This document shows, piece by piece, positions 21,291 to 60,817 of a stretch of DNA of 64,000 nt (positions are counted from its first letter, which is position 1; each line of letters starts with the position of its first letter). Source of the stretch: an uncultured Spirochaetota bacterium. Lineage in GTDB: Bacteria; Spirochaetota; UBA4802; UBA5550. A model generated the notes under the pieces. It had not been told where the DNA came from and searched no databases. It worked only from the letters and a program-made list of their open reading frames with translations. Location: the NCBI GenBank assembly GCA_963827275.1, contig CAWHAA010000010.1, forward strand, positions 224,001-288,000. The letters run 5' to 3'. The translations under genes were made by a program, and so were the position numbers.

Positions 21291-22157
21291 ATGAAGACCG
21301 TTATCATTACGCCGAGTTACGCGCCTGACTTTGAGCGGTGCAAAATACTCTGCGAGAGCGTCACGAACTTTGCCACATCGTATGATCAACATATCATTAT
21401 CGTTGATGCCAGAGACCTTGCCCTTTTTCAGACACTCAAAGCCCCCAAGATCCGGATAATTACAAAAGAATCGATCCTGCCCCGGTGGATAAAAAAAATT
21501 CCCTTTTCAAAGAGATGGTGGTTCAGCTTTAAAACGCTTCCCGTGAGGGGCTGGATCCTGCAGCAGATAATAAAGATGTCCGTTGCCGAGCACATTGACG
21601 CGGACATGTACCTCTTCATTGATTCCGATATCATGCTGATACGGCCGGTGGACATGTCCTTTTTCATGAGAAACGGCAAGGTGCGGATGTACAGGTTCCC
21701 GCGCGTGAAAAAGGATTTCACCGAAAAGCGCCACATGGCGTGGTACCGTTATGCCGGCAAGCTATTCGGCCTCAAAGGCGAGGATTATTTACAATATGAC
21801 TATATCGGTCCTTTCGTTACATGGAGAAAAGACACACTGATAAAGATGAACAGGCATATTGAGAAATTGACCGGCAAAAAACACTGGCAGATGGAAATAT
21901 GCAACACGCTGGATTTTTCTGAATATATACTGTACGGTTTGTTCTGCGAGTTTATTCTCAAAGAAGACTCGGGGCATTACTTTGACGACACCATGATATG
22001 CCATACATCGTGGATTGAGCCCATCAACAATCTCGATGAGCTCGAGGATTTCCTGAAAAGAATAACCCCGGAGCATATCGGGATCTGCATCCAATCAAAC
22101 TTAAAAATTGAGCCTGACAAGTATATCGACTTCATCAGAAAAAATATACTCAAGTGA
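21291..22157 (+). CDS. DUF6492-like putative glycosyltransferase, paralogue 1
   Basis: 'ITPSYAPDFERC', 'RGWILQQIIK', DxD 'DSD', 'FSEYILYG'. Confidence 0.7.
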   Translation: MKTVIITPSYAPDFERCKILCESVTNFATSYDQHIIIVDARDLALFQTLKAPKIRIITKESILPRWIKKIPFSKRWWFSFKTLPVRGWILQQIIKMSVAEHIDADMYLFIDSDIMLIRPVDMSFFMRNGKVRMYRFPRVKKDFTEKRHMAWYRYAGKLFGLKGEDYLQYDYIGPFVTWRKDTLIKMNRHIEKLTGKKHWQMEICNTLDFSEYILYGLFCEFILKEDSGHYFDDTMICHTSWIEPINNLDELEDFLKRITPEHIGICIQSNLKIEPDKYIDFIRKNILK

Positions 22158-22431
22158 CCCCCGGCAGGAAAAAACATCGGTTTTTGTTGCGTTTCTTACA
22201 TAATTACATTCCTTACATATAAAACGTGCCCTCTCACTGATTATTTTCTTGCATCCCAGCCCTACTCCCTATACCATGTCTTATTCTGACAACAATGTGA
22301 TAGTGATGCATATTCAAAATCAGCGAAAAATCTGGTTGATGCATCTTTTTGGTTTTTTCTGTGGTGTAAACATTAATAAAACAAACACTATGGCTATACT
22401 TCGCTAAAATATCATTAAAAACCGAGGTCCC

Positions 22432-23298
22432 ATGAAAACAGTAATTGTAACACCGAGCTATGCTCCCGATTTTGAACGGTGCAAGATCCTCTGCGAAAGC
22501 GTAAAAAAATTTGTCACCTCCTATGATCGTCACATTCTCATCGTCGACAGAAAAGACCTGTCGCTTTTTAAAACGATCACAGGGCCAAAGATCGAGATAA
22601 TAACAAAAGAATCGATCCTGCCCCGGTGGATAAAAAAAATTCCTTTTTCAAAAAAATGGTGGCTCAGCCTTAAAACCCTCCCGATCCGGGGATGGATCCT
22701 TCAGCAGATAATAAAATTAGCCGTTGCCGAATTTATCGACGCGGACGTTTATGTTTTCTGCGACTCGGACATAATTATTGTCCGTCCCACGGATGCGTCG
22801 GTATTCATTAAAAACGAGAAAGTCCGCCTGTTCAGATTCCCGCGCGTGGAAAAAGACTTTACCGAACCGCGGCATGTAAGCTGGTACCGTACCGCGCAGA
22901 AAATGTTCAACCTGACCGGGGATGAGTACCTCCAGGGAGACTATATCGGCCACCTCATAACATGGCGAAGAGATACGCTCTTAAAGCTTAACAGATATAT
23001 TGAAAAAAGATACGGCAAAAAAGATTGGAAAACCGTCATGGGCAATACGCTTCATTTTTCCGAATATATTCTGTATGGAATTTTCTGCGAGTTTATCTTA
23101 AAGGAGGAATCCGGGCATTATGTGGACACGACGGATATTTGCCATTCATCATGGCATTATCCGGTTGACAATCTCGATGACCTCCGTACATTTTTGGAAA
23201 AACTGCGGCCGGAGCACCACGCAATCTGCATTCAATCCAATTTGAAAATCGAGCCGCATAAATATATTGATTACATAAAAAGCGTCATTGACAAATAG
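22432..23298 (+). CDS. DUF6492-like putative glycosyltransferase, paralogue 2
   Basis: Same length (288 aa) and motifs as 21291-22157; tandem duplicate. Confidence 0.7.
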   Translation: MKTVIVTPSYAPDFERCKILCESVKKFVTSYDRHILIVDRKDLSLFKTITGPKIEIITKESILPRWIKKIPFSKKWWLSLKTLPIRGWILQQIIKLAVAEFIDADVYVFCDSDIIIVRPTDASVFIKNEKVRLFRFPRVEKDFTEPRHVSWYRTAQKMFNLTGDEYLQGDYIGHLITWRRDTLLKLNRYIEKRYGKKDWKTVMGNTLHFSEYILYGIFCEFILKEESGHYVDTTDICHSSWHYPVDNLDDLRTFLEKLRPEHHAICIQSNLKIEPHKYIDYIKSVIDK

Positions 23299-29618: not shown

Positions 29619-32412
29619 ATGGATGCGCGTTCCGATATACTGAATACAATCAAGATCAACCAGCAGAAATTTCAGAACTATAACGCATTAAAGCTCGGCA
29701 ACCTCCAGCGGTCCCTGTCGGAGCAGCAGGCGACAATACTGCTCGAACTCATCCCCTATCTTCTCAACGTGAACACCGCCGGGCTGCCCGGCCACGTCCC
29801 GGCAGCGAACATGCCCGCCGGAGTATACGACTTTGTCCCCTCCCCGCGGCTCATCGATTTCATTTCGAAGCGCTTTCCCGACTCGGGGGTCACCCGGAAC
29901 AGGGTGGACAACCCGTTCATCCTCATGATGGCGCTCATCGGCAGCTGCGGCACGATCGCCTATACCAGACAGTCGGACTTTGACTTCTGGCTCTGCTACC
30001 AGGAAGGGAAATACGACAGGGAGGCCATCGGCCTGTTCAAGACAAAGCTCCGCACCATCGAGGGCCTGGCATATGAAAAATTCAACATGGAGATACACTT
30101 CTACCTGAACGAAATAGGCCGTGTGCGGAACAACATCTTCGCCGATGACGGGGAAGAGCTTTCCGGCTCCTCGATCGGCGAGCTCCTGAAGGAAGAGTTC
30201 CTCCGGAGCTCCATCGTGCTGAGCGGCAAGGCCCCCTTCTGGTGGGTCGTGCCCACTGACACCGATAACGCGACCTACGACACCTGGCTCGAGGCGGCAA
30301 AAAAATCCGACATGGCGGACCGCTTCATCGACCTGGGCAACCTCTACAGCATCAAGCAGGAGGACTTCCTTGCCGCGGGGCTCTTCCAGATACTCAAGTC
30401 CCTCGGCAACCCCTTCAAGTCGATCATCAAGCTCGGCCTCCTGGAGCGGTACATCAACAACTACATGGACAACCCGTTCATCTGCAACATCATCAAGAAG
30501 AACATCCACGAGGGCAACCTGGCCTACGACCACATCGACGCATACATCATCATGTTCAACTACGTGTACGACTACTACAACTCGATCGTCAAGGACAGGG
30601 ACGCCCTGGACGTCATCAAGACGTCGTTCTACCTCAAGGTCGAGCCGGTCCTGTCGCGCAGCCTGTCCGGAAAGCAGGAGGAGGGGTACAACCCGGACAA
30701 GACCCGCATCATGCTGGAATACGTGAAAAAATGGGGCTGGGCCGCGGCAAAGATCAGGGAGATGGACAATTTCAACAACTGGAGCATCGAGCCGGTGAGC
30801 CGGCTCCTGAACAACGCGAAGAAATTCGTCCTCCAGGAGTACCGGCGCATCCTGGGCAATATCGAAGACGCACAAGGTCAAGCACAAGTTCACCGACGAG
30901 GAGATCAAGGCGATAAGCCGAAAGATCTACTCGCACTTCCAGGTGTCCGACAACAAGATCGACAACACCCTGAGCTTCAAGAACTATCCGCCCGAAAAGC
31001 TTTTAAAAATCGAATATGTCCGCGACCAGAAGGGGAACGAGACATGGTTCCTGTCCAAGCGCCTCATCGTCGACAACCACCCGAACATCGTCATCATCCA
31101 CAAGGACAGGACGCTGCTCGGGCTCTCGGTCTGGGTCAGCCTGAACGGCCTGTTCAAGAAGGACTACACGAGGCTCGAGATCGACACGGGCCTCCACAGC
31201 CTTGAAACGAACTTCCTCCGCGAGCTCATATCCGACATCTCAACGAACTTCATGTTCAAGAAGATCAACGCCTTCCGCGAAGACTACCTGAAAGACCCCT
31301 ACCCGGTCATGAGCTATGTCATCTTCAACATCTACTCAAAGTACTCGCGCAAGATCGACGAGATCTTTTTCCTCTACCACGACAGCTGGGGCTCAACCAG
31401 GTTCGAGACCTTTAAAAGCGAGATGGACCTCGTGCAGGTACTGGTGCGGGCCCTGAACGGCTGCATCGCCACGAAAAGCGATTACACGAGCGCGATGAAC
31501 GTCGTTTCCTCCTCGCCCTTCAGCTCGACGAAGGACTTTATCCGGATCAAGACGTTCATCAACGACCTGTTCTCCTTCTTCCTTGACGGCAACGCCGACG
31601 CGAAGAAAAGCTACGTCACCATGATGGGCAACCAGTACCTCATCTTTTACACCAGGAAGACCGGCGCTTCCGCGGTCATCGACACGATCCTCTGCGATTC
31701 CGAGGCGAAGATGATGTTCAGCCTCTCGTTCAACTACGGGCTGAAAAACATGATCCGGGTGGACCCGTCCATCAAGGAGCTCAACTTCCTGAAGACCATC
31801 ATCGACAATTCCAGCAACGAGGCGATCCAGATATACTTTGACAGCGACCGGAAGTACTCGCTCTTCTACGTGATCGACGAGAGCGGGTCGCTCTTCTTCT
31901 ACCGGAAGCCGGCCGACCTGCTGTTCGATTACCTGACGCGGCTCTACCTCTTCGCGAAGAACGTGGCGTCGCAGGTGGTCCGGCAGAACCCCGCCTCGTC
32001 CCTCCGGCTCAGGGAAAACCCTGTCGAGATATTCCAGATGAAAAAGGACCTGTACATGAACTATTCGGTCACCAGGATTGATCCCGAGCACTCGGTGAGG
32101 ATAGAAGATTTGCAGAAAAAGATCCAGCCGTGCGGCCTGGCGGTAGCGATGGACGCGAACCGGGAAATGTTCTACAGCATCACCCTGCCCGACGGGAAGC
32201 AGTCGGAGCCCTTCTCCAAGCACAGCGTCGTTCAGTTCGTGAAAAAACTCAACGGGGTCCTCGATTCGAAGGACTACCGGCCGTTCGTGACCGCCGTCGA
32301 CCTGACACGCCTCCAGCACAAGTATTTCCGCTTCTATTCGTCATATTCCTTCTACGAGAAGATGCGCGCCGAGCTCATGCTCGAGGGCGCGCAGGCGCAG
32401 GCGAATAAATAA
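29619..32412 (+). CDS. cyaA: Class I adenylate cyclase, frameshifted at ~30864 (~930 aa if corrected)
   Basis: 'IGSCGTIAYTRQSDFDFW', 'EIHFY', 'LLKEEFLRS', 'GKAPFWW', 'PFKSIIKLGLLERY'; the +1 frame after ATC-G continues KTHKVKHKFTDEEIKAISRKIYSHFQVSDNKI into ORF 30943-32412. Confidence 0.8.
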
Positions 32413-32420
32413 CGCCCGCC

Positions 32421-32840
32421 TCAACTCCCCCCCCTCGTCCCCCGCAGGGGGGCACGCGGGATCAAATCATCCATCTCTCAGCGCAATTTCATGCATGATC
32501 ATGTCAACGCCCCCCTGTCCCCCGTGGGGGGCACGTGAGATCAAATCATCCATCTCTCAGCGCAATTTCATGCATGATCATGTCAACGCCCCCCTGTCCC
32601 CCGTGGGGGGCACGTGACATCAAACCTTTTTTGATAACTCTCTCTTAATCGCATCAAGAACTGAATTAATCTCTTTCATGATTTCATCATTGTCAAATCG
32701 TATTGTTTTTAGCCCGAAAGTTTCCATGAAATCATCGCAGTATTCATCATAGTCTGTTCTTACTTTATGTCAATCAGCCCCTTGATTCGTGCCCCCTTCG
32801 GGGGACAGGGGGAAATTCATTCATGCCCCCTACGGGGGTC
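32421..32840 (-). mobile_element. REP-bounded DUF559 element, defective copy 1 (three tandem left repeats + 3' gene fragment + right repeats)
   Basis: Left repeats at 32421, 32504, 32583; minus-strand 32769-32620 encodes HKVRTDYDEYCDDFMETFGLKTIRFDNDEIMKEINSVLDAIKRELSKKV*; inverted right repeat at ~32783-32817. Confidence 0.75.
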
Positions 32841-32848
32841 AAAGTGGA

Positions 32849-33472
32849 TTACCGGTAGTACCTCTTCTGCTCCCTCACCGTTGATTTCGGGAACCTCCCG
32901 TAATGGTGCCCCGGCCATATCACCGTATCGTCCGGCAACACGAGGATTTTATGGAGGATGGAGTGCATGATCTTCTCCATCGACCCGTCACCGAGATCGG
33001 TGCGCCCCATCCCCTCGGTGAACAGGGTGTCGCCGGTGAATATGTGGCCCGGCGCGTACAGGCACACGCTCCCCTCGGAATGGCCCGGCGTATGTATTAT
33101 TTTTAGAGAGCAGCCGCCGAACGTGATGACGTCGCCCTCCTTTACGGTCATTTGCGGCGGGGGCGAGGTCTTGCCTCCCATGGTGCGGGAGAGGAACCTG
33201 CTCGTGAGGCTCCCGAGCTTGCGGACGTCGGTCTCGTGCAGGAGAAGCGGCGCACCGGTCTTTTTCATCCAGTAGTCGTTGCCCGACGTGTGGTCGAAAT
33301 GCCCGTGGGTATTGATGATATATTTTACCGTGACATTGTGCTTCTTTATGGCGCTCTCGATAAGCTGGTGGTCCCCTGCGGGATCGATGAGCACCGCCTC
33401 CCTGGTCGACTCGTCCGCCACCAGGTAGCAGAACACGGCCATCTGCGTTACAAGTATCTGTTCGATTATCAT
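32849..33472 (-). CDS. MBL-fold metallo-hydrolase (glyoxalase II-like)
   Basis: 'NTHGHFDH', 'HTPGHS', 'FTGDTLF', 'GRTDL', 'PGH'. Confidence 0.92.
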   Translation of the reverse strand: MIIEQILVTQMAVFCYLVADESTREAVLIDPAGDHQLIESAIKKHNVTVKYIINTHGHFDHTSGNDYWMKKTGAPLLLHETDVRKLGSLTSRFLSRTMGGKTSPPPQMTVKEGDVITFGGCSLKIIHTPGHSEGSVCLYAPGHIFTGDTLFTEGMGRTDLGDGSMEKIMHSILHKILVLPDDTVIWPGHHYGRFPKSTVREQKRYYR

Positions 33473-33491
33473 ACTTCAAACCTCTTCATGG

Positions 33492-33991
33492 TCAACTCCC
33501 CCCTGTCCCCCGTAGGGGGCACGCGGGATCACGACTTTTCTAATAACTTGTGCTTGATTGCAACAAGAACTGAATCAATATTTTTCATGATTTTATCATT
33601 ATCAAATCGCATTGTTTGTATCCCGAGACTTTTCAAAAAATCATCGCGGTATTCATCGTAGTCTTTTCTTTCTTTATGGACGTTTCCATCCACCTCAATC
33701 GCCAGGAGCTTTTCATCACAATAAAAATCAAGTATATAGCGATATATCGGATGCTGGCATCTGAATTTATATCCCTCAAGCTGCTTGCTCTTCAACCGCT
33801 CCCATAATAAACGCTCACCGGGAGTTAAATTATTGCGCATATCTCTCGCCAGTTGAATAACATAGTCAGGTGTTTTAATGCCTTGATTCATATTCTTGTT
33901 ACAATCAGCATCCTGATTCGTGCCCCCTGCGGCGATCAGGGGGGAATTCAGCCCCTTGATCCGTGCCCCCTATGGGGGACAGGGGGAAATT
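33492..33991 (-). mobile_element. REP-bounded DUF559 element, intact copy
   Basis: Left repeat TCAACTCCCCCCTGTCCCCCGTAGGGGGCACGCGGGATCA (33492-33531); two inverted right repeats (33914-33949, 33957-33991) enclosing the endonuclease ORF. Confidence 0.75.
33529..33891 (-). CDS. DUF559 / very-short-patch-repair-like (PD-(D/E)xK) endonuclease
   Basis: 'ARDMRNNLTPGERLLWERLK...FRCQHPIYRYILDFYC...LAIEVDGNVH...DEYRDDFLKSLGIQTMRFDN'. Confidence 0.92.
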   Translation of the reverse strand: MNQGIKTPDYVIQLARDMRNNLTPGERLLWERLKSKQLEGYKFRCQHPIYRYILDFYCDEKLLAIEVDGNVHKERKDYDEYRDDFLKSLGIQTMRFDNDKIMKNIDSVLVAIKHKLLEKS

Positions 33992-34013
33992 AAGGTGAGC
34001 GGGATACAGGCGC

Positions 34014-35024
34014 TCAGCCCACTTCATATATCATGAGCCGCTCTTCCACCCCCGGCCAGGACGGTATCCTCCGTGAGCATATCATCCGCAGCGACTCCAG
34101 CTCCCGGAAAAAATCTTCGTCCGCCGTCGATCCCATGGCGCCGACGAAAACAAGCGTCCTGCCGCCGGCCTCCCGGTAGCGGCGCAGTGCATTTACCGCC
34201 ATCGGGTCATATATCGGGGGCCAGCAGAGGAAGAGCGCCCGTTCCGGGTAGCGTCCTGCCATCGACTCGTCGCCCTCGTGGACCACGGACCAGGTGTCTT
34301 CGAACCACCGGTTTGCCTCCTGCCACTCCCACGGCCGCTCGTCGCCGGGCGGCCGGTTGTCGTAAGCGATGATGTCGGCGCCGGCGTCGCGGAGGCACAT
34401 GGCCCAGTACCCGTTCCCGGCGCCGATCTCCACCAGCGGCGAGCGGCCCGCTATCTCCTCAACCACCTGTATCGTGGGGACAGAAAACGCGTACCTGCAG
34501 ATTAACTCGGCCCTCCTCTCGTTGAGGAGGGCGCCCGGCACGCCGCCGTCCCGCCCTGCGTTCGCGGCAATGAGGGCGAGCACCTCTTCAAGGTACGGGT
34601 TCCTGATGCGCCATTCCCCGTCGGGCGGGACGTACCCCGTTATATCGGTTTCATTATCGGCTCCGGGCGTTGCGCTGCCGGTTTCATGCTGCGCAATCCC
34701 GTAGTCATCGCCGTAGCGGCCCCTGACCATCCCGGCGAGCAGACCCGGGTCCGCGACGATGGCGTCCTTTTCCTTCCTGGTCAGCCCCTGGATGAGGCGC
34801 TCGACCCGCAGCGCATCGCCCCTTCCCCCGGAAAGCCTCCAGCAGCGGGCCATCCGGACCGGCTTGAAGCTCCTGGTGTACCTGGCGCCTGCCGCGCCGC
34901 TCCGGTGCTCTTCATACCGCCGCGCAGGGTCGTCGGTCGAGCCGGTGTAATACGACCCGTTTTCGCATTCGAGCATGTACACGTACAGGTGCCGGGGATG
35001 TATGTTATCGCGGTTCTGGCTCAT
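34014..35024 (-). CDS. GIY-YIG nuclease (UPF0213-like) fused to a class I SAM-methyltransferase-like domain
   Basis: N-terminal 'YVYMLECENGSYYTGSTDDPARRYEEH...ARYT'; C-terminal 'LVEIGAGNGYWA...DIIAYD...LFLCWPP'. Confidence 0.75.
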   Translation of the reverse strand: MSQNRDNIHPRHLYVYMLECENGSYYTGSTDDPARRYEEHRSGAAGARYTRSFKPVRMARCWRLSGGRGDALRVERLIQGLTRKEKDAIVADPGLLAGMVRGRYGDDYGIAQHETGSATPGADNETDITGYVPPDGEWRIRNPYLEEVLALIAANAGRDGGVPGALLNERRAELICRYAFSVPTIQVVEEIAGRSPLVEIGAGNGYWAMCLRDAGADIIAYDNRPPGDERPWEWQEANRWFEDTWSVVHEGDESMAGRYPERALFLCWPPIYDPMAVNALRRYREAGGRTLVFVGAMGSTADEDFFRELESLRMICSRRIPSWPGVEERLMIYEVG

Positions 35025-35051
35025 TGCCGGCAATCGGGACGAAACCGGGTT

Positions 35052-35915
35052 TCATTTTTTATTCTTTAGCGCATGCATGCTTTCGAAGAGCCAGCGCGGG
35101 TACGTGATCTCCGCATCCGCCGTCTTCTGCGCAAGCAGGAAGATATTGCTCCCGCGGTTCCGGCTGGTCAATAACTGTATGAGTCCCCGATAGCGCTTGA
35201 CGGAAAATCCTTCGATGTTGATCGATCCGGTCACCTTCGTATAGAGCTTCACCACGCGGAACCCCAGGCTCTCGACCAGGTCACGCAGCTCGGCCGGAGT
35301 GTACTCGCGGTTATGGCGCCCGTACGCGCCGTACCCGGAATAATGGTCATGCACGTTCCTGCCGAGGACCAGCTTGAGCACGTTCTCGTAACGGAGCACG
35401 TTGGGGGTGGTGATGATCATGTACCCTCCTTTGTCGAGGAGGCGGTTTATCTGTACAAGTGGATGGACCGGGTCGACCGTAAGGTGCTCGATGATCTCGC
35501 AGAAAAGGACCAGGTCAAAGGACTTCGGCTTGAAGGGAAACTCCTCCTTTTCGACGTTGAAGTGCCTGAAGGAAATGTCATGCCGCACGCCGTATTTCTC
35601 GCTCTGAAGGACTTCATGTGTTGCCACCTTCGCCGTATCCCCGAAATAGTTGGCCATCTCCAGGGCGCAATTGTAATATTTTTTTATAAGCAGACTCATG
35701 AAATAGGGGCTTGCCCCCAGCTCCAGGACCCTGCTTTTTTCGTTTATATTATCAGGGAAAAGCTCCAGGGTTTTCAAAAAACGGTCCAGGGAGAAATTCA
35801 GGTAATTGTTTTGTTCCTCGGGATTGAGCCCGGGCAGCCTGAAGCTCGCCAGGTACTCCATGATCGATCCAACCTTCGCTTTGTCATACTTAACGCCCAC
35901 GCAGTTTGCCTCCAT
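35052..35915 (-). CDS. Class I SAM-dependent methyltransferase
   Basis: 'RVLELGA', 'FDLVLFCEIIEHL', 'GGYMIITTPN', 'HNREYT'. Confidence 0.88.
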   Translation of the reverse strand: MEANCVGVKYDKAKVGSIMEYLASFRLPGLNPEEQNNYLNFSLDRFLKTLELFPDNINEKSRVLELGASPYFMSLLIKKYYNCALEMANYFGDTAKVATHEVLQSEKYGVRHDISFRHFNVEKEEFPFKPKSFDLVLFCEIIEHLTVDPVHPLVQINRLLDKGGYMIITTPNVLRYENVLKLVLGRNVHDHYSGYGAYGRHNREYTPAELRDLVESLGFRVVKLYTKVTGSINIEGFSVKRYRGLIQLLTSRNRGSNIFLLAQKTADAEITYPRWLFESMHALKNKK

Positions 35916-36061
35916 GGTGACGCAGGGTCACCCCGTTCTCGAATATAAATCAATACGGAATTGAAAAGGAAAATTTGCAAGTTATTTTCACACTCCCGGG
36001 GAGAGAGGAGGCCTATGTAGTAACCCAACCGGCTAATTTTTACCCGCCGGCTGAAAAACAA

Positions 36062-36090
36062 TTGACGCCATGCAAAAATAACATTATATT
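36062..36090 (+). promoter_or_regulatory. Putative sigma70 promoter
   Basis: TTGACG-17 nt-TATATT upstream of GGGAGG RBS and TTG start 36134. Confidence 0.5.
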
Positions 36091-36133
36091 TTAGTAACTA
36101 TTAAATTTATAAATTATAAGGGAGGATACAGCT

Positions 36134-36865
36134 TTGAAATACCTGGTATATATCGCAGCACTCCTGGCCCTCGCCCTTCCCCTCCAGGCAGGGCCCTTCA
36201 TGGACATGGAAGCCGGGCCGGTGTTCACGGGTAGCAACGATGCGCGGATTTCGGGCAAGTTTGGCACGAGGTTTTCACTCCCGGGGACCCTGGGAAACCG
36301 GACCTCTCCTTACATACGAGCTCGCGCCGGGTGGACAATCAAGGACCGTCACACCATCTCGTTCCTCGCCGCGCCGCTGAACGTGGAATACTACGGCACC
36401 TCATCACGGTTCCTTGTATTCAGAAACAGGTTGATCGTTCCGCATGCCCCGGTACAGGCGAATTTCAAATTCAACTCGTGGCGCCTGACCTACCGGTACG
36501 ATATCGTAAAAAATGACACTATCGAATTCGGCCTCGGCCTCACCGGGAAGATACGCGACGCCTATATACGGCTCGACAGCATGGGCGTACGGACCACCCG
36601 GCCGGACCTGGGATTTGTGCCCCTGATCAACATACGGCTGCAATGGATGTTCACGCCGGGCTTCAGCTTTTTGCTGGATGCCGACTGGCTGGCGGCCCCG
36701 CAGGGAAGGGCCGAGGACATTCTCGTGGCCCTGCAGCACCATGTCGGCGACCACGCGGTCTTCAGGGTGGGGTACCGCATCCTCGAGGGAGGGGCGGACA
36801 ACAAAAGCGTGTTCACCTTCTCGCTGTTTCACTACGCGGTCTTCGGTGCAACCATGAAGTTCTGA
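36134..36865 (+). CDS. Putative outer-membrane beta-barrel protein
   Basis: Signal peptide ending LQA, amphipathic strands, C-terminal Phe ('GATMKF'). Confidence 0.7.
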   Translation: MKYLVYIAALLALALPLQAGPFMDMEAGPVFTGSNDARISGKFGTRFSLPGTLGNRTSPYIRARAGWTIKDRHTISFLAAPLNVEYYGTSSRFLVFRNRLIVPHAPVQANFKFNSWRLTYRYDIVKNDTIEFGLGLTGKIRDAYIRLDSMGVRTTRPDLGFVPLINIRLQWMFTPGFSFLLDADWLAAPQGRAEDILVALQHHVGDHAVFRVGYRILEGGADNKSVFTFSLFHYAVFGATMKF

Positions 36866-36893
36866 CAAAGGGGTTGGCGGCTGTGGGAGGTTG

Positions 36894-37280
36894 TCACCTG
36901 CCGCGGCCGCGGTAGCCCCCCTTGATCAGTTCCCGCGCCGCACCGTACAATTCACTCTCTTCGAGGGCCAGGGCCCTGTCGATGCACTGCAGGGCGAGCT
37001 TGTAATCGCCGTTCTTGTAGGCGTATTTCGCCATCAGGTACTGGAGACGATCGAACGCCGGGTCCATGCGCGCGGCCTTCCCGAGGGCCTGGATGGCGTC
37101 CGAAAACTTTTTCTGCCTGGCATACACCCGGGCAAGCGCGATGTAGGCATATATGAAGTGCGGGTTCAGGTCGATGGCCCTGTTCAGGTACGCGAGCGCC
37201 TTGTCGTAATTTCCGAGCTGTACCCACTCCACGCCCATGTCAAAGGAATCATCCGCCTCGATGTCGTCATAGTGCTTCAT
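36894..37280 (-). CDS. Tetratricopeptide repeat protein
   Basis: Three TPR-like helical repeats ('LGNYDKALAYLNRAIDLNP'); start MKHYDD after GGAG. Confidence 0.85.
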   Translation of the reverse strand: MKHYDDIEADDSFDMGVEWVQLGNYDKALAYLNRAIDLNPHFIYAYIALARVYARQKKFSDAIQALGKAARMDPAFDRLQYLMAKYAYKNGDYKLALQCIDRALALEESELYGAARELIKGGYRGRGR

Positions 37281-37320
37281 GGACTTTTCTCCCGTGCGAT
37301 ACACTGCCGCCCTTTTCGTC

Positions 37321-37678
37321 CTCCCCCCTGTCCCCCGTATCAACGCCCCCCTGACCCCCGCAGGGGGCACGAGGGATCAAATCATCCATCTCATAACGTA
37401 ATTGCTCACATCATCATATCAACGCCCCCCTGTCCCCCGCAGGGGACACGAGGGATCATGCTTATACTGATAATTCTTTCTTGATTGCATCAATAACTAA
37501 ATTAATATTATTCATGATTTCATCATTGTCAAATCGCATTGTTTGTATCCCGAGACTTTTCAAAAAATCATCGCGGTATTCATCGTAGTCTTTTCTTTCT
37601 TTATGGACGTTTCCATCCACCTCAATCGCCAGGAGCTTTTCATCACAATAAAATCAAATATATAGGGACAGGGGGGAG
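37321..37678 (-). mobile_element. REP-bounded DUF559 element, defective copy 3 (5'-truncated, mosaic)
   Basis: Partial plus two full left repeats at 37321-37458; 37529-37653 identical to 33602-33726; ends in a truncated right repeat GGGACAGGGGGGAG. Confidence 0.75.
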
Positions 37679-37782
37679 TATCCCCCATTTCATTATAAAG
37701 GTCAAATGTTTTACTCTGATTTGTATTGACCATCCGTCATCCGTATCACATACTGATCATTAAGACACAGGGAGGGTCGATC

Positions 37783-39282
37783 GTGTTACATCAATACTGG
37801 CACCCGCGCATATGCGCCGTCATCTTTTTTGTCCTCTTCATTTCCGGCTGCGGCCACAGGCCCGAAGACATTGACATTTCGTTCGGGCCTGAAAAGAAGG
37901 CCGCCGATCCCGGTACCGCGCTCATGAAGGGCATTGCACCGGAGAATATCGGATACTTGCTCTACGACCTGGAATCAGGCGAGGCGGTGCGGAGCCACAA
38001 CCGCTCCCGCGCCTTCATCCCCGCCTCCACCACGAAGATCGCCTCCACCGTGGCCGCCCTTGACGTACTGGGCCCCGATTTCCGGTTTACCACCCGCCTC
38101 TGCTACGAGGGATCCGTCAGCAAAGGGGTCCTGAAAGGCGACCTCTATCTCAAGGGCAGCGGGGACCCGCTCCTCACGGTCTCGGACCTGATGGAGATGA
38201 CGGACCGCATGAAGGACAAGGGCATACGTTCTGTCTCAGGGCGCTTCATCTATGACGACGGAGACCTGGGCGGCGCGGAGTGCATCGACAGCGGCATGGA
38301 GCCCGACATGTCGTTCAACCCCGGCGTAAGCGCGCTTTCCCTTGAATACAACGCGGTCACTGCCCAGTGGAAAAGGGACCGGCAGACTCATTCTATCGGG
38401 ATATACTTGACGCCGAGCCTGCCCATAAACAGCGCGTCGCTTTCGGTGGAAAAGCTCGGCGAGAATACCAGGTTCGCGTACCGCGATGACGGAGGCGTGG
38501 AAACCTGGCTCCTGACGCCGGACGAGGACCGGGACGGGAGCGAGCGCCTGCCGGTCAGGAAGCCGTCGCGTTTCACCGCGCACGTGTTCGCGCGCCTGTG
38601 CGCCATCCGGGGCATCACCCTCCCCCGGCCCGTCCCCGGCACGATGCCCAGGAGCGCGGACGAAATCGCCGTGCACCGCGGCCCGGCGCTCACGGAGATC
38701 GCGGACATCACCCTCACCTTCAGCGTCAACCTGGCGGCGGAGCTGATCATGCTCAGGACCGCGAAAGAGCTCACCGGGGCGGTCATGAAACCGATAGAGG
38801 CGGCAGGGCACGTGTCCCGCTACCTTTCAGGCCGCCTGGAAAATGTACCGTGGAAAAATTTTTTCATGGTAAACGGCTCCGGGCTCACGGTGCGCAACCG
38901 GGTGACCCCGGAGCAGATGACCGCCCTCCTGATCTATGCTGACGCACAGAGATACAACGGCATGAGGTACCGGACGCTCATGCCCTCTTCCGGGATCGAG
39001 TGGTCGCTCGTGAACCGGCTCAGCGATCCCCACGCGGCGATGCGCGTGTGGGCGAAGACCGGCACCATCAACTACGCCATCGCCCTGGCGGGGTACCTCT
39101 TCACGGAATCGGGGCGCACCATGGCCTTCGCGATCTTCATCAATGATATGACGGAGCGGGAGCGGTATGATGCCGACCCCGACCGCAGGAGCAGGGAATC
39201 GTCGCGGAGGGTGACCGCGTGGCTCAACAATGCGAAGAACGTCATGGACGCCATCGTCGCTTCATGGATCAGGGAGCTGTAG
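37783..39282 (+). CDS. dacB: D-alanyl-D-alanine carboxypeptidase/endopeptidase (PBP4, peptidase S13), probable lipoprotein
   Basis: SxxK 'PASTTK', 'GSGDP', SxN 'SVN', 'GSGL', 'AKTGT'; GTG start after GGAGG; lipobox ISGC. Confidence 0.92.
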   Translation: MLHQYWHPRICAVIFFVLFISGCGHRPEDIDISFGPEKKAADPGTALMKGIAPENIGYLLYDLESGEAVRSHNRSRAFIPASTTKIASTVAALDVLGPDFRFTTRLCYEGSVSKGVLKGDLYLKGSGDPLLTVSDLMEMTDRMKDKGIRSVSGRFIYDDGDLGGAECIDSGMEPDMSFNPGVSALSLEYNAVTAQWKRDRQTHSIGIYLTPSLPINSASLSVEKLGENTRFAYRDDGGVETWLLTPDEDRDGSERLPVRKPSRFTAHVFARLCAIRGITLPRPVPGTMPRSADEIAVHRGPALTEIADITLTFSVNLAAELIMLRTAKELTGAVMKPIEAAGHVSRYLSGRLENVPWKNFFMVNGSGLTVRNRVTPEQMTALLIYADAQRYNGMRYRTLMPSSGIEWSLVNRLSDPHAAMRVWAKTGTINYAIALAGYLFTESGRTMAFAIFINDMTERERYDADPDRRSRESSRRVTAWLNNAKNVMDAIVASWIREL

Positions 39283-39313
39283 CGCAGGCCGGACCGGCCT
39301 AGTGGCTGATGCC

Positions 39314-39520
39314 TCAGCCGCCGCCGGCGCCGTGGGAGCATCGGGAGGCGGAAGCGCACCCGGGGGCCGTACCGGAGGATATGGATGAAAACGAGGAGAT
39401 GAGCTTCCTGGTCTTCGTGGAGCCGCACTGCTGGCACGTGACCTGCTGATCGTCCCCCATGCGGCGTATCTCGGAAAATTTCCCGCCGCACTCGTCGCAT
39501 TTGAATTCATATATAGGCAT
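39314..39520 (-). CDS. FmdB-family zinc-ribbon protein
   Basis: 'MPIYEFKCDECG...CQQCGS...RKLIS'. Confidence 0.9.
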   Translation of the reverse strand: MPIYEFKCDECGGKFSEIRRMGDDQQVTCQQCGSTKTRKLISSFSSISSGTAPGCASASRCSHGAGGG

Positions 39521-39599
39521 TGAGTGACCTCAATTATTAAGTTATATCTAAAGTACTGAAACCTCTATAAAATGTCAAGGCCATGTGGGAAATCTTTTA

Positions 39600-39805
39600 T
39601 CAACTTTCCCCTGTTCCCAAAACCATGAGCATGATCACATCAGCTCCCCCCTGTCCCCCGGAGGGGGCACGTGAGATCAAACTTTTTCTAAAAACTCTCT
39701 CTTGCCAGTTTAACAATAAAGTCAGATGTTTTAATGCCTTTGTACATGTGCGCCTGCCATCAGTTCCTCTGACTCGTGCCCCCTCCCGGGGCCAGGGGGG
39801 AATTC
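39600..39805 (-). mobile_element. REP-bounded DUF559 element, defective copy 4 (internal deletion, MITE/REPIN-like)
   Basis: Degenerate and full left repeats (39600, 39640); 71-nt remnant 39747-39677 joining the gene's 5' end (MYKGIKTSDFIVKLAR) to its 3' end; right repeat 39770-39805. Confidence 0.75.
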
Positions 39806-39854
39806 AACTCATTGGCCCGCGCCCACTCCGATGTCCTGATGGCATGTTAGCAGA

Positions 39855-39888
39855 GGGTCAGAGCAAAGTCAGACCGATAGTTATCGGT
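39855..39888. repeat. Second repeat family: GGGTCAGAGCAAA + palindrome ACCGATAGTTATCGGT
   Basis: Same composite motif recurs at 60759-60817. Confidence 0.7.
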
Positions 39889-39914
39889 ACTATTGCGGAC
39901 GTGATGGCAGGTGC

Positions 39915-42062
39915 TTATTTCTTAAGCACCACCAGCGCGTCCACCGCGACCGGCTCGGCCCCCTCTATTATGATCGGGTTGATGTCGATCTCCGCCACCC
40001 CGGGATGGGCGAGCGGCACGAGGCTCAGCCGGTGGAGGGCCCGCGCCAGCGAGCTGACATTGACCGCCGGCATCCCCCGGAACGGGCCCAGGAGCGCGCG
40101 CGCGCGTATATCGAACAGCATCTCCGCCGCATCGTCCTCGCTGATAGGCGCCGGCCTGAAGACCGCGTCACCCAGGGCCTCGGTGAAGATGCCCCCCAGG
40201 CCGAACATCACCGACGGCACGAACCCGGGGGCGCGCACCAGGCCGGCGACGAACTCCCGGTCTCCCCTGACCATGCGGTAGGCGATGACCGGGACGTTCC
40301 TCCCGGCAGCCTCCTGTATCTTGCGGAACGATGCGACCGCCTCGTCCTTCGATTTCAGGTTGAGATAGATGAGCCCCTTCCCGGTCTTGTGGAGGATATC
40401 TCCCGCGCTCGCCTTCATGACGAGGGGAAAGCCGGCCTTTTCCGCTGCGGCGGCCGCTTCGTCTTCCGTATTCGCGACGATCTCGCGGGTGACCGGGACC
40501 CCCCACGCGTCCAGGAAGAGCTTCGAGCCATGCTCGTCCAGGTTCGCCTCTCCCCTTGCGCGGCACTCTTCCAGCAGGCGCGCCGCTTCACCCGGCGCCG
40601 TGACCGGCGCGGGCTTCGCCCAGGGCGCGCGCTCCCGCACCTCCCTGTGGCGCAGCATCATCAGCATGCCGCCGGCGGCCTTCTCCGGAGAATCGAATAC
40701 CGGCACGCCGTGGTCGTGGTAGGACGTGGTATAATTGTCTTCCCTGTCAAAAAAGCTCGATATGGAAACCGGCTTGTTATACACGGGAATGTAATCCGCG
40801 GCGGTGGATGATTTGTCATTGAAGCCTGCGATCAGCCCCTCGAGGGAGACGTCCTTCATCACCGCGCTGAAATGTGGAAAGACGGCCTTTATCCAGCCGG
40901 TCCCCATGACACCGTGTATCACAAGCCCGTCAACCTCCCCGCTTTTCAATATGATCTCGGGTATTTTATTCGCAAGGTTCTCGATCTCCATGCTGAAGGT
41001 CATGTCGATCGGGTTCCCGCAGGGGGCGTGGGGCGGCACGAGGGGCCGCACCAGCTCCCGGACCTCCTTTGAAAACTCCGGCACCTCGAGCCCCCCCTTC
41101 TCAAGGGTGTTGGCGATCGCGGAGCCCGGGCCGCCCGAATTGGTGAGGATGCCGATCCGCTTCCCGTTCAACCGGGGCTGGTTGGCGAGCATGTTCCCGT
41201 AGTGGTACAGGTCCTCGATGCTGTGCACCCTGATGATGCCCGCCTGGCGGAACAGGCCGTCGTAGAGATGGTCCGGCGCGGCCATGGAGCCGGTATGGCT
41301 CAGGCTCGACCGGGCGCCGGCGCTTGAGCCGCCCACGTACTGGGCCAGCACCGGCTTGCGCGGCGTGATGGCCCTCGCGACATCGATGAAGCGCGGAATG
41401 TCGCTGATCCCCTCGATGTAGAGCGCTATGGCCTTCGTGTGCTCGTCCTCACCCAGGTACTCGAGCGCGTCTATGATGTTGATGTTCGCGCTGTTGCCCA
41501 CGCTGATCGCCTTGCTGAAGCGGATCCCGTTCTGTACGAGATAGGGGATCGACTGCGTGACATAGGTGCCGCTCTGCGACGCGAACCCCAGCGAACCGGG
41601 CGCGATCGTATAAGGCATGACCGTGGTATTCAGCGCTATCTGGCTGTTGATGATCCCCATGCAGTTGGGCCCGAGAAAACGGATACCGTACCGGTCCGAC
41701 AGCTCGATCAGGCGCTCCTGCATCCGCCGCCCTTCATCGTTCATCTCGCCGAAGCCGGCGGTTATGATGATGGCGCTCTTCGTCCCCTTCCTGCCGAATT
41801 CTTCGATGATCCTGACGACCTCGACGGAGGGGACGACGATAAAAGCGAGGTCCGGAACGTCCGGTATATCCGCGATCGAACGGTATGCAGTGAGGCCGAG
41901 CACCGTTTCCTGCAGCGGGTGGACAGGATAGATTTTTCCTTTATACCCGTCGTTGATAATGCTCAGGGCGTGCATGGTGCCCATCTTTAAAATATTGTTC
42001 CCGGCCCCGACTGTGGCTATCGACCCGGGGTTCATCAGGCGGTGAAGGGGATTTTCGCTCAT
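39915..42062 (-). CDS. Acetate/acyl-CoA ligase (ADP-forming), fused alpha-beta
   Basis: CoA-binding N-terminus, 'LGPNCMG', 'SQSG', 'SHTGSMA', ATP-grasp 'HKT...VMFGLGGIFTE...EIDINP'. Confidence 0.92.
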   Translation of the reverse strand: MSENPLHRLMNPGSIATVGAGNNILKMGTMHALSIINDGYKGKIYPVHPLQETVLGLTAYRSIADIPDVPDLAFIVVPSVEVVRIIEEFGRKGTKSAIIITAGFGEMNDEGRRMQERLIELSDRYGIRFLGPNCMGIINSQIALNTTVMPYTIAPGSLGFASQSGTYVTQSIPYLVQNGIRFSKAISVGNSANINIIDALEYLGEDEHTKAIALYIEGISDIPRFIDVARAITPRKPVLAQYVGGSSAGARSSLSHTGSMAAPDHLYDGLFRQAGIIRVHSIEDLYHYGNMLANQPRLNGKRIGILTNSGGPGSAIANTLEKGGLEVPEFSKEVRELVRPLVPPHAPCGNPIDMTFSMEIENLANKIPEIILKSGEVDGLVIHGVMGTGWIKAVFPHFSAVMKDVSLEGLIAGFNDKSSTAADYIPVYNKPVSISSFFDREDNYTTSYHDHGVPVFDSPEKAAGGMLMMLRHREVRERAPWAKPAPVTAPGEAARLLEECRARGEANLDEHGSKLFLDAWGVPVTREIVANTEDEAAAAAEKAGFPLVMKASAGDILHKTGKGLIYLNLKSKDEAVASFRKIQEAAGRNVPVIAYRMVRGDREFVAGLVRAPGFVPSVMFGLGGIFTEALGDAVFRPAPISEDDAAEMLFDIRARALLGPFRGMPAVNVSSLARALHRLSLVPLAHPGVAEIDINPIIIEGAEPVAVDALVVLKK

Positions 42063-60758: not shown

Positions 60759-60817
60759 ACCGATAGTTATCGGTGATCCCGCGGGGTCAGAGCAAATTAA
60801 GGACCGATAGTTATCGT
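60759..60817. repeat. Two ACCGATAGTTATCG(G)T palindromes flanking GGGGTCAGAGCAAA
   Basis: 60759-60774 perfect, 60803-60817 near-perfect; same motif at 39855-39888. Confidence 0.7.

Follow-up and report, generated by a model that had tools for sequence, protein, structure and literature searches.

G/C-rich intrastrand-triplex repeats, known as BoxC, PIT and TMECO, have been catalogued in bacteria since the 1990s and, in the account given of them by Holder et al. (2015, PMC4666352, citing Bachellier and Hoyne), they occur in thousands of copies in hundreds of genomes and are tied to instability. As that account describes them, the repeats have no transposase or integrase remnants beside them and no linked gene is reported; the terms 'DUF559', 'ycjD' and 'endonuclease' are absent from the main text of the article. 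We analyzed a stretch of 64,000 nucleotides from an uncultured Spirochaetota bacterium (assembly GCA_963827275.1, contig CAWHAA010000010.1, positions 224,001 to 288,000; hereafter the window), in which four loci combine an inverted pair of similar three-run repeats, here termed arms, with an intact or decayed gene for a protein of the DUF559 family. On balance, we lean towards the reading that these loci represent one family of small mobile cassettes, whose DUF559 nuclease is predicted to cut its own ends, with host repair copying the unit.

Homing endonucleases of the Vsr-like (EDxHD) kind, among them I-Bth0305I (Dassa 2009, PMC2677866; Taylor 2011, PMC3239194), share a fold class with Vsr itself (see also PMC3424549). 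DUF559 is unmentioned in the main texts of PMC2677866 and PMC3239194, and one genome paper equates a DUF559 gene with the EDxHD homing family in a passing remark (PMC9403480). A DUF559-domain protein of Caulobacter, VsrA, is described in PMC12907096 as causing an SOS response in vivo and as part of a methylation-linked damage response. We found no published DUF559 cassette with terminal repeats in a literature search by titles and the starts of abstracts, which covered material other than subscription journals and supplements.

The four loci (32421-32840, 33492-33991, 37321-37678 and 39600-39805; loci 1 to 4) follow one design in one orientation. The unit is an inverted pair of arms of the order C-run/C-run/G-run enclosing DUF559 coding sequence on the minus strand, with terminal inverted repeats of ~35 nt and a total length of ~460-500 bp. 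The left arm, read on the plus strand, is (T)CAAC-N-CCCCCC-TGT-CCCCC-loop-GGGGG-CACG-NNNGATCA, and the left arms fit TCAAC(T/G)CCCCCCTGTCCCCC-N3-GGGGGCACG..GATCA; the right arm is the inverse, CGTG-CCCCC-loop-GGGGG-ACA-GGGGG(G)-AAATT. There are two arm types with unlike inner flanks, CACG-CGGGATCA and CACG-AATCAAGGGGCTGA. Locus 2 is the sole intact cassette of the genome: its left arm core (33500-33523) is followed by an open 120-codon DUF559 frame on the minus strand (33529-33891), whose TGA stop codon lies inside the conserved GATCA adjoining that arm, and then by two right-arm sequences, one of them degenerate (~33918-33945) and the other a core (33962-33985). Locus 1 is a decayed cassette with three left-arm units of 79-bp period (cores 32432-32456, which is degenerate, 32512-32535 and 32591-32614), a minus-strand DUF559 remnant covering residues 72-119 (32626-32769) and a right arm core (32788-32811), after which another degenerate hairpin extends up to 32840. 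Locus 3, likewise decayed, opens with a half arm that ends abruptly past its loop (37321-37339), continues with two left-arm units, again of 79-bp period (cores 37348-37371 and 37427-37450), and holds a minus-strand remnant of residues 48-116 that contains a TGA (37471-37674); its right arm is reduced to GGGACAGGGGGG (37665-37676) and fused to mid-gene sequence. Locus 4 is a gene-less miniature, in which a degenerate arm unit (39600-39640) and a left core (39648-39671) precede a 3' stub of the gene (39672-39696) and its first 17 codons (39697-39747), both on the minus strand, and a right core (39775-39798) closes the unit. The cassette's only open reading frame (ORF) is DUF559, and the unit carries no recombinase gene of the DDE, HUH, serine or tyrosine type; a comparison of 56 ORFs of the window with Pfam likewise recovered no transposase and no recombinase. 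The initial annotation, which had claimed the shared architecture and orientation, a truncated right end in the third copy, a single intact gene at 33529-33891 among differently deleted copies, and a window free of DDE, HUH/RAYT and recombinase genes, is borne out by these observations at all four loci.

The 120-residue protein encoded at 33529-33891 matches the Pfam DUF559 profile (PF04480) with an E-value of 3.6e-34 over positions 4-108 of its 109, and a solved structure, PDB 3HRL (an endonuclease-like protein of N. gonorrhoeae), with an E-value of 5e-19 over residues 20-116. By these sequence matches to the profile and to a solved member, it belongs to the Vsr-like PD-(D/E)XK fold. Its score against the NCBIfam model PRK09767 (YcjD) is 80.9 bits and thus under the 218-bit equivalog cut-off, so that it is not a YcjD orthologue. 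D55, E66, D68 and H72, which by analogy we take to be the catalytic residues, are intact in the window protein and invariant in 32 of 32 homologues spanning 34-100% identity. We predict that the protein is an active nuclease.

Beyond the window (C10:224001-288000 of a 4.13-Mb assembly in 11 contigs, 92% complete), we searched the genome for the arm core CCCCTGTCCCCC-N3-5-GGGGGCACG, either exact or with up to 3 mismatches. It occurs in 42 exact copies and in 72 copies with ≤3 mismatches, at 42 loci on 9 of the 11 contigs, so the copies are dispersed and do not represent one local duplication. DUF559 sequence is found at 11 places on 4 contigs, all 11 of which adjoin an arm, and comprises the one intact gene, three full-length copies with one nonsense codon each (C10:468425-468781, C9:158832-159182 and C4:401047-401406) and seven fragments with different deletions; 4 of the 11 are clustered in 7.4 kb. 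The intergenic surroundings of the 11 gene-bearing and 42 repeat loci are unrelated to one another, and the loci do not occupy one cognate site. Convergent arm pairs account for 13 loci, 121-485 bp in length (a listed fourteenth, of 1554 bp, spans loci 1 and 2), and the remaining 29 loci carry solo or same-direction arms; tandem arm units recur with periods of 43-44 bp and 79 bp. The miniature at 39640-39805 and another at C10:471324-471531 are ~79% identical and share the same internal deletion, of positions 58-350 of the 500-bp unit, so that a gene-less deletion derivative was itself copied. Stop-free frames run long in G/C-rich DNA, on the antisense strand too, so that overlap of a frame with the repeats says little.

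Among the arms of the source genome we also observed a variant with a 23-nt insert, GCTTCGACAAGCTCAGCACGGCG, in the second C run (C4:728793, C5:441309 and C10:468856, three loci in all), which is shared with right arms of the closest congener; the insert appears to resemble a separate widespread short repeat. Three independent rearrangement junctions, namely those of the locus 3 right arm, of a congener's locus-2 left arm and of this insert variant, all have their breakpoint at a single position of the second C run, directly behind CCCCCCTGTCCC, a coincidence that gives a weak hint of a preferred break site.

The copies retain the marks of a protein maintained by selection. Across the full-length copies of the source genome and four congeners, the ratio of nonsynonymous to synonymous divergence (Ka/Ks) is 0.06-0.39 in the 23 of 28 pairs that escape saturation, among them pairs of copies now carrying one nonsense codon. 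Judged by these ratios, the protein is under purifying selection between copies, and since Ka/Ks is low even between present pseudogenes, the copies must have diverged in a functional state and lost it recently. The arms are similarly constrained, in that the C and G runs are unchanged in the 10 arms of 5 full elements while the loops and the TGT spacer vary. The window gene differs from its closest congener copy by a Ks of 0.167, as against 0.60-1.27 for six flanking host genes, and that copy sits in the gap between genes A and B, whereas the window gene occupies the neighboring gap between B and C; the low Ks and the different gaps together indicate that the gene changed place or was exchanged long after the two species had parted.

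Of 41 related genomes, the source genome included, 14 have the exact arm core, as do 10 of 16 other genomes within the genus, in numbers ranging from 1 to 139. All 16 congeners keep the gene order around the four loci (genes A to I), and the intergenic gaps vary; the flanking genes are not duplicated, and these syntenic congeners are mostly without inserts. The A-B gap, home of locus 1, measures 436 bp in the window and 10-58 bp in 7 of 13 relatives measured; the B-C gap (locus 2) is 541 bp in the window and 49-113 bp in 5 of 14 relatives; and the H-I gap (locus 4) is 394 bp in the window and 70-101 bp in 4 of 10 relatives. In the closest congener, a full intact cassette stands in A-B, where the window holds the decayed locus 1, and near-identical right ends occur at two neighboring sites. 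Its B-C gap retains a left-arm stub, the first 16 DUF559 codons and a right arm, with the gene body replaced by a VapB/PIN pair (L089:4700-5600; a 66-residue VapB antitoxin, PF09957, and a 137-residue PIN-domain toxin, PF01850); in two other congeners the B-C arm pair surrounds unrelated AT-rich filler. In several congeners (G015, G011, G004, G014 and G001), the same gaps contain other G/C hairpin families, of the form CCCTCTCC...GGAGAGGG with CCTCACCCC, in species without TGT-type arms, and these intergenic gaps are hot spots for several repeat families.

Empty alleles are found not only in congeners but also in strains with 98-99% identical flanks, as became apparent from contigs of eight public metagenome runs aligned over 31800-40300. 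Locus 1 is absent in some of these strains, in which contigs join 32411 to 32849/32850 with 29 other letters between (run X12, side 26; run X10, side 57; run X3 has the same letters as a loose end). These 29 letters contain C5-T-C5-TTGAT, the start of another arm family, one found beside more distantly related DUF559 genes of three congeners, so that the locus 1 site has served more than one arm family. Locus 4 is absent in other strains, in which 39520 is joined to 39928 with 78 other letters between (X1 and X6, side 255; X3, side 29). The sequence of the empty alleles is not simply that of the filled allele minus the insert. The intact cassette of locus 2 is present wherever it is covered (X1, X3, X5, X10 and X11), with one X11 contig spanning 33491-34008. 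Contig junctions in which one side had ≤30 letters, or which linked one repeat copy to another (32812 to 33916, 33531 to 37423, 39704 to 33914 and 37339 to 37672) fit repeat-induced graph joins and were set aside. Read together, the comparisons between species and between strains demonstrate mobility of these units on both evolutionary and population time scales.

The linkage of gene and arms extends well beyond this genome. The same arms surround 4 of 4 congener orthologues of at least 68% identity, and at loci of at least 55% identity the three-run motif is found on both sides of the gene in 13 of 15 and on one side in the other 2. Across these lineages the spacer between the C runs changes (TGT/TGA, TAA, AAA/AAG, TAAAT or GA), with runs of 5/5 or 6/6, and in related lineages all three blocks lengthen together to 6/6/6. 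At 17 more distant loci of the same order, other inverted hairpins take their place in 12. In a set of homologous loci from many phyla, a strong inverted repeat directly flanks the gene in 52 of 66, compared with 0 of 66 windows shifted by 500 bp, and a match to the published TMECO pattern is found no more than 250 bp from a DUF559 homologue at 20 of 68 loci (on both sides in 13), against 0 of 68 control windows. The only TMECO match in 10 kb of E. coli K-12 lies ~170 bp downstream of ycjD. In that region (L199:5040-5840), we also observed that a degenerate C/G hairpin overlaps the ycjD stop and that a partial duplicate of the ycjD 3' end is located between this hairpin and the TMECO repeat. 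This linkage rules out a chance neighborhood of gene and arms; co-variation alone is no proof that the protein acts on the arms, because the two are linked.

Compared with the BoxC/PIT/TMECO repeats, the window arms have the same layout when read on the opposite strand, where in the published order a C stem is followed by two G stems, with loops of 3-6 and of 3 respectively in between, and where the three consecutive blocks of the 72 arm copies read CCCCC-N3-GGGGG-ACA-GGGGGG. Both are intergenic, dispersed and patchy among close relatives, with conserved stems and variable loops, and both include some inverted pairs built of two arm types and show local rearrangement. They differ in the stems, which are 5-6-nt homopolymer runs in the window as opposed to 9-nt CCCTCNCCC blocks, so that the window arms do not match the published pattern CCCTCNCCC-N3-6-GGGNGAGGG-N3-GGGNGAGGG with its 9-nt stems; a triplex is the structure proposed for that class of repeats.

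The arms also recall the REP/REPIN repeats, which are likewise short, G/C-rich intergenic palindromes that occur as singlets, inverted doublets and tandem clusters and may enclose a gene between inverted copies. The enzyme here, however, has a Vsr-like PD-(D/E)XK fold and is not a HUH/Y1 transposase. The DUF559 gene, too, is present in multiple copies, most of them decayed, and in this it is closer to an insertion sequence and its miniatures, whereas RAYTs are typically single-copy and maintained. With insertion sequences and miniature inverted-repeat transposable elements, the cassettes share the ~35-nt terminal inverted repeats, copies with internal deletions that retain the two ends and have themselves been copied, bursts in certain genomes (for instance G020, of another genus of the family) and a patchy distribution; they differ in having no transposase of a known class, no target-site duplication that we could see and a unit of only ~460-500 bp. 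With the Vsr-like homing endonucleases they share a small selfish gene for a nuclease of the Vsr fold, presence/absence polymorphism, the expected cycle of invasion and decay, and a proposed spread by cutting and host repair. Those enzymes, in contrast, occur within introns, inteins or fractured genes, have a single cognate site to which they home, carry extra DNA-binding domains (NUMOD), and lack terminal inverted repeats, gene-less miniatures and multi-site dispersal.

The initial annotation had proposed a selfish unit with non-autonomous derivatives, and this part of it has gained substance: 10 of 11 gene copies are decayed, a deletion derivative has been copied, the protein is under purifying selection between copies, Ks is low relative to the neighboring genes and lineage-specific ends surround the homologues. 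We accordingly regard the selfish character of the unit as well supported by comparative data. For the route of spread, we infer nuclease-initiated recombination, with the nuclease as a plausible motor. As we picture it, the nuclease would recognize the three-run ends as duplex, hairpin or triplex and would nick or cut at or near its own ends. The cassette, whether whole or with an internal deletion, would then be copied to other sites by host repair or recombination, with no transposase taking part; arm pairs that lack the gene, like solo arms, would be relics, non-autonomous or dead, which persist after the nuclease is gone. Two observations fit local, repair-based spread: 4 of the 11 copies fall within a span of 7.4 kb, and the right ends at neighboring sites in the closest congener are nearly identical.

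Several points weigh against the nuclease-driven cassette. The evidence is wholly comparative, and no cleavage, excision or new insertion has been seen in it. No target-site duplication and no common target or flanking word emerged at the 13 paired elements, although a duplication concealed within the terminal C/G runs would escape detection. To our knowledge, a bare 120-residue nuclease has no way of joining DNA, and insertion at new sites would consequently need some host pathway. The folding energies of the single-stranded arms are ordinary: under a hairpin-only folding model, the predicted DNA folds of six arms range from -5.5 to -11.7 kcal/mol, with z-scores of +0.3 to -3.0 against shuffles and below -2 in only one of the six, which adds no support to that already given by the conserved runs. 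At 92% completeness in 11 contigs, the assembly could be missing a partner gene. Moreover, since arm pairs in congeners enclose unrelated filler or vapBC, the arms can bracket other DNA. Finally, no DUF559 homologue at least 60% identical to the window query was found in G020 (139 exact arms), G001 (27) or G011 (15). Either the arms outlive the nuclease or something else can move them, and this is the main weakness of a nuclease-driven reading.

These last observations, together with the 29 solo or same-direction loci of the source genome, are what would be expected if the repeats were REP/BoxC-like sequences spread by an unrecognized enzyme, by Y1 transposases acting in trans or by a host process, with DUF559 as a homing-type parasite of repeat pairs. 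The account of such repeats without a linked gene in Holder et al. (2015, PMC4666352) is in line with this explanation, as is the presence of Y1_Tnp genes in 11 of 11 genomes searched. We nevertheless consider it rather unlikely, for the following reasons. Many of the arms of G020 form units of ~195 bp, inside which a DUF559 gene is reduced to its first ~23 codons and its 3' end, with a deletion point unlike that of the window miniatures, and the nearest DUF559 homologue of that genome is 57% identical and has TAAAT-type arms. As their interior keeps both DUF559 ends, the G020 units are deletion derivatives, and as the miniatures of the source genome and of G020 alike keep the first 17-23 codons along with the 3' end, they are deletion products of gene-bearing units and not empty targets. 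A gene-free 'virgin' pair with a short spacer was not found in the source genome, and the arm sequence changes with the nuclease lineage. Several G020 miniatures (L019-L027) additionally show an outer inverted flank, GCTCATTCCGGATTTTTGGGA, 30-45 bp beyond the arms, which may mean that another palindromic element harbors the unit or serves as its target, or that a larger mobile unit exists there.

The Y1 transposases in particular have a poor claim to the arms. Six Y1_Tnp (RAYT/IS200-type) genes are present in the source genome, none of them in the window, and no arm lies within 1.5 kb of any of the 36 Y1_Tnp loci in the source genome and five repeat-bearing relatives, so that the repeats flank no such gene there. 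Y1_Tnp is also present in 5 of 5 arm-free congeners. The Y1 loci of the source genome have another repeat, the 9-mer GGGTCAGAG, which is near the gene in 5 of 6 loci and occurs in 179 copies genome-wide. On these grounds (0 of 36 loci, no link with the presence of the arms and a different cognate repeat) we rejected a role of RAYT in moving the arms. Of the GGGTCAGAGCAA repeat found with the Y1 genes, the window has two copies, at 39855-39880, just right of locus 4, and at 60784-60810.

A further explanation, which we hold to be highly improbable, is that DUF559 is a host repair or defense nuclease comparable to Vsr or to Caulobacter VsrA, the hairpins being structural or regulatory and the copies immobile segmental duplications. 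The role of the Caulobacter protein in a methylation-linked damage response (as described in PMC12907096), the purifying selection on the window protein and the clustering of four copies within 7.4 kb could be cited in its favor. It sits poorly with 10 of 11 copies being broken, with copies on 4 contigs and arms on 9, with flanking genes that are unduplicated and syntenic in 16 congeners mostly without inserts, and with a Ks of the gene 4-7 times below that of its neighbors; nor is there a DNA methyltransferase partner alongside, the nearby Methyltransf_23/11 gene being syntenic in cassette-free genomes. Dispersal, decay and empty sites thus largely refute this explanation. An assembly or chance artefact of G/C-rich low-complexity DNA, as might be suspected of a metagenome assembly whose short-read contigs break at repeats, can practically be dismissed in view of the 0 matches of the arm core in 3 shuffles of the genome and 0 of the reversed pattern across 41 genomes, of independent public runs from several studies that hold the same loci at 98-99% identity, and of the same architecture in the assemblies of other species.

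The neighbors of the four loci are ordinary genes. A Pfam scan identified among them adenylate-cyclase-like, metallo-beta-lactamase-fold, GIY-YIG-domain, methyltransferase and TPR proteins, as well as a D-Ala-D-Ala carboxypeptidase, a zinc-ribbon protein and an acyl-CoA-synthetase-like protein. The gene beside the intact cassette (34014-35033) encodes an N-terminal GIY-YIG nuclease domain and is syntenic in all congeners, cassette-free ones included, and is for this reason probably unrelated to the cassette. To the left of locus 1, a class-I adenylate-cyclase-like gene (29619-32412) is represented by two overlapping frames, 29619-31205 for the N-terminal domains and 30943-32412 for the C-terminal part, which could reflect a frameshift, a split gene or two genes. 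Farther away, two tandem DUF6492 paralogues (21291-23298) lie within a polysaccharide-synthesis gene cluster.

Returning to the nuclease-driven cassette, we tentatively extend it to a broader proposal, in which we place less confidence than in the reading of the four loci themselves: DUF559 nucleases could be the missing mobility enzymes of G/C three-run repeats of the BoxC/PIT/TMECO type across bacteria, each gene forming with its two inverted arms a transposase-free class of mobile element. Such elements would spread through cutting of their own ends, specific for structure or for sequence, and through host repair, would leave gene-less miniatures and solo arms in their wake and would also cause the local instability reported near those repeats. 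The source genome alone displays the full life cycle of such an element, with an intact cassette, freshly inactivated and differently deleted copies, a copied miniature and solo arms. If the nuclease drives the spread, this would amount to a type of mobile element without a transposase, would give a role to a very common domain, DUF559, including YcjD of E. coli, and would supply the enzyme missing so far from a class of bacterial repeats that has long gone unexplained. If the nuclease is only a passenger of the repeats, it would still be a widespread selfish gene with a specific repeat habitat.

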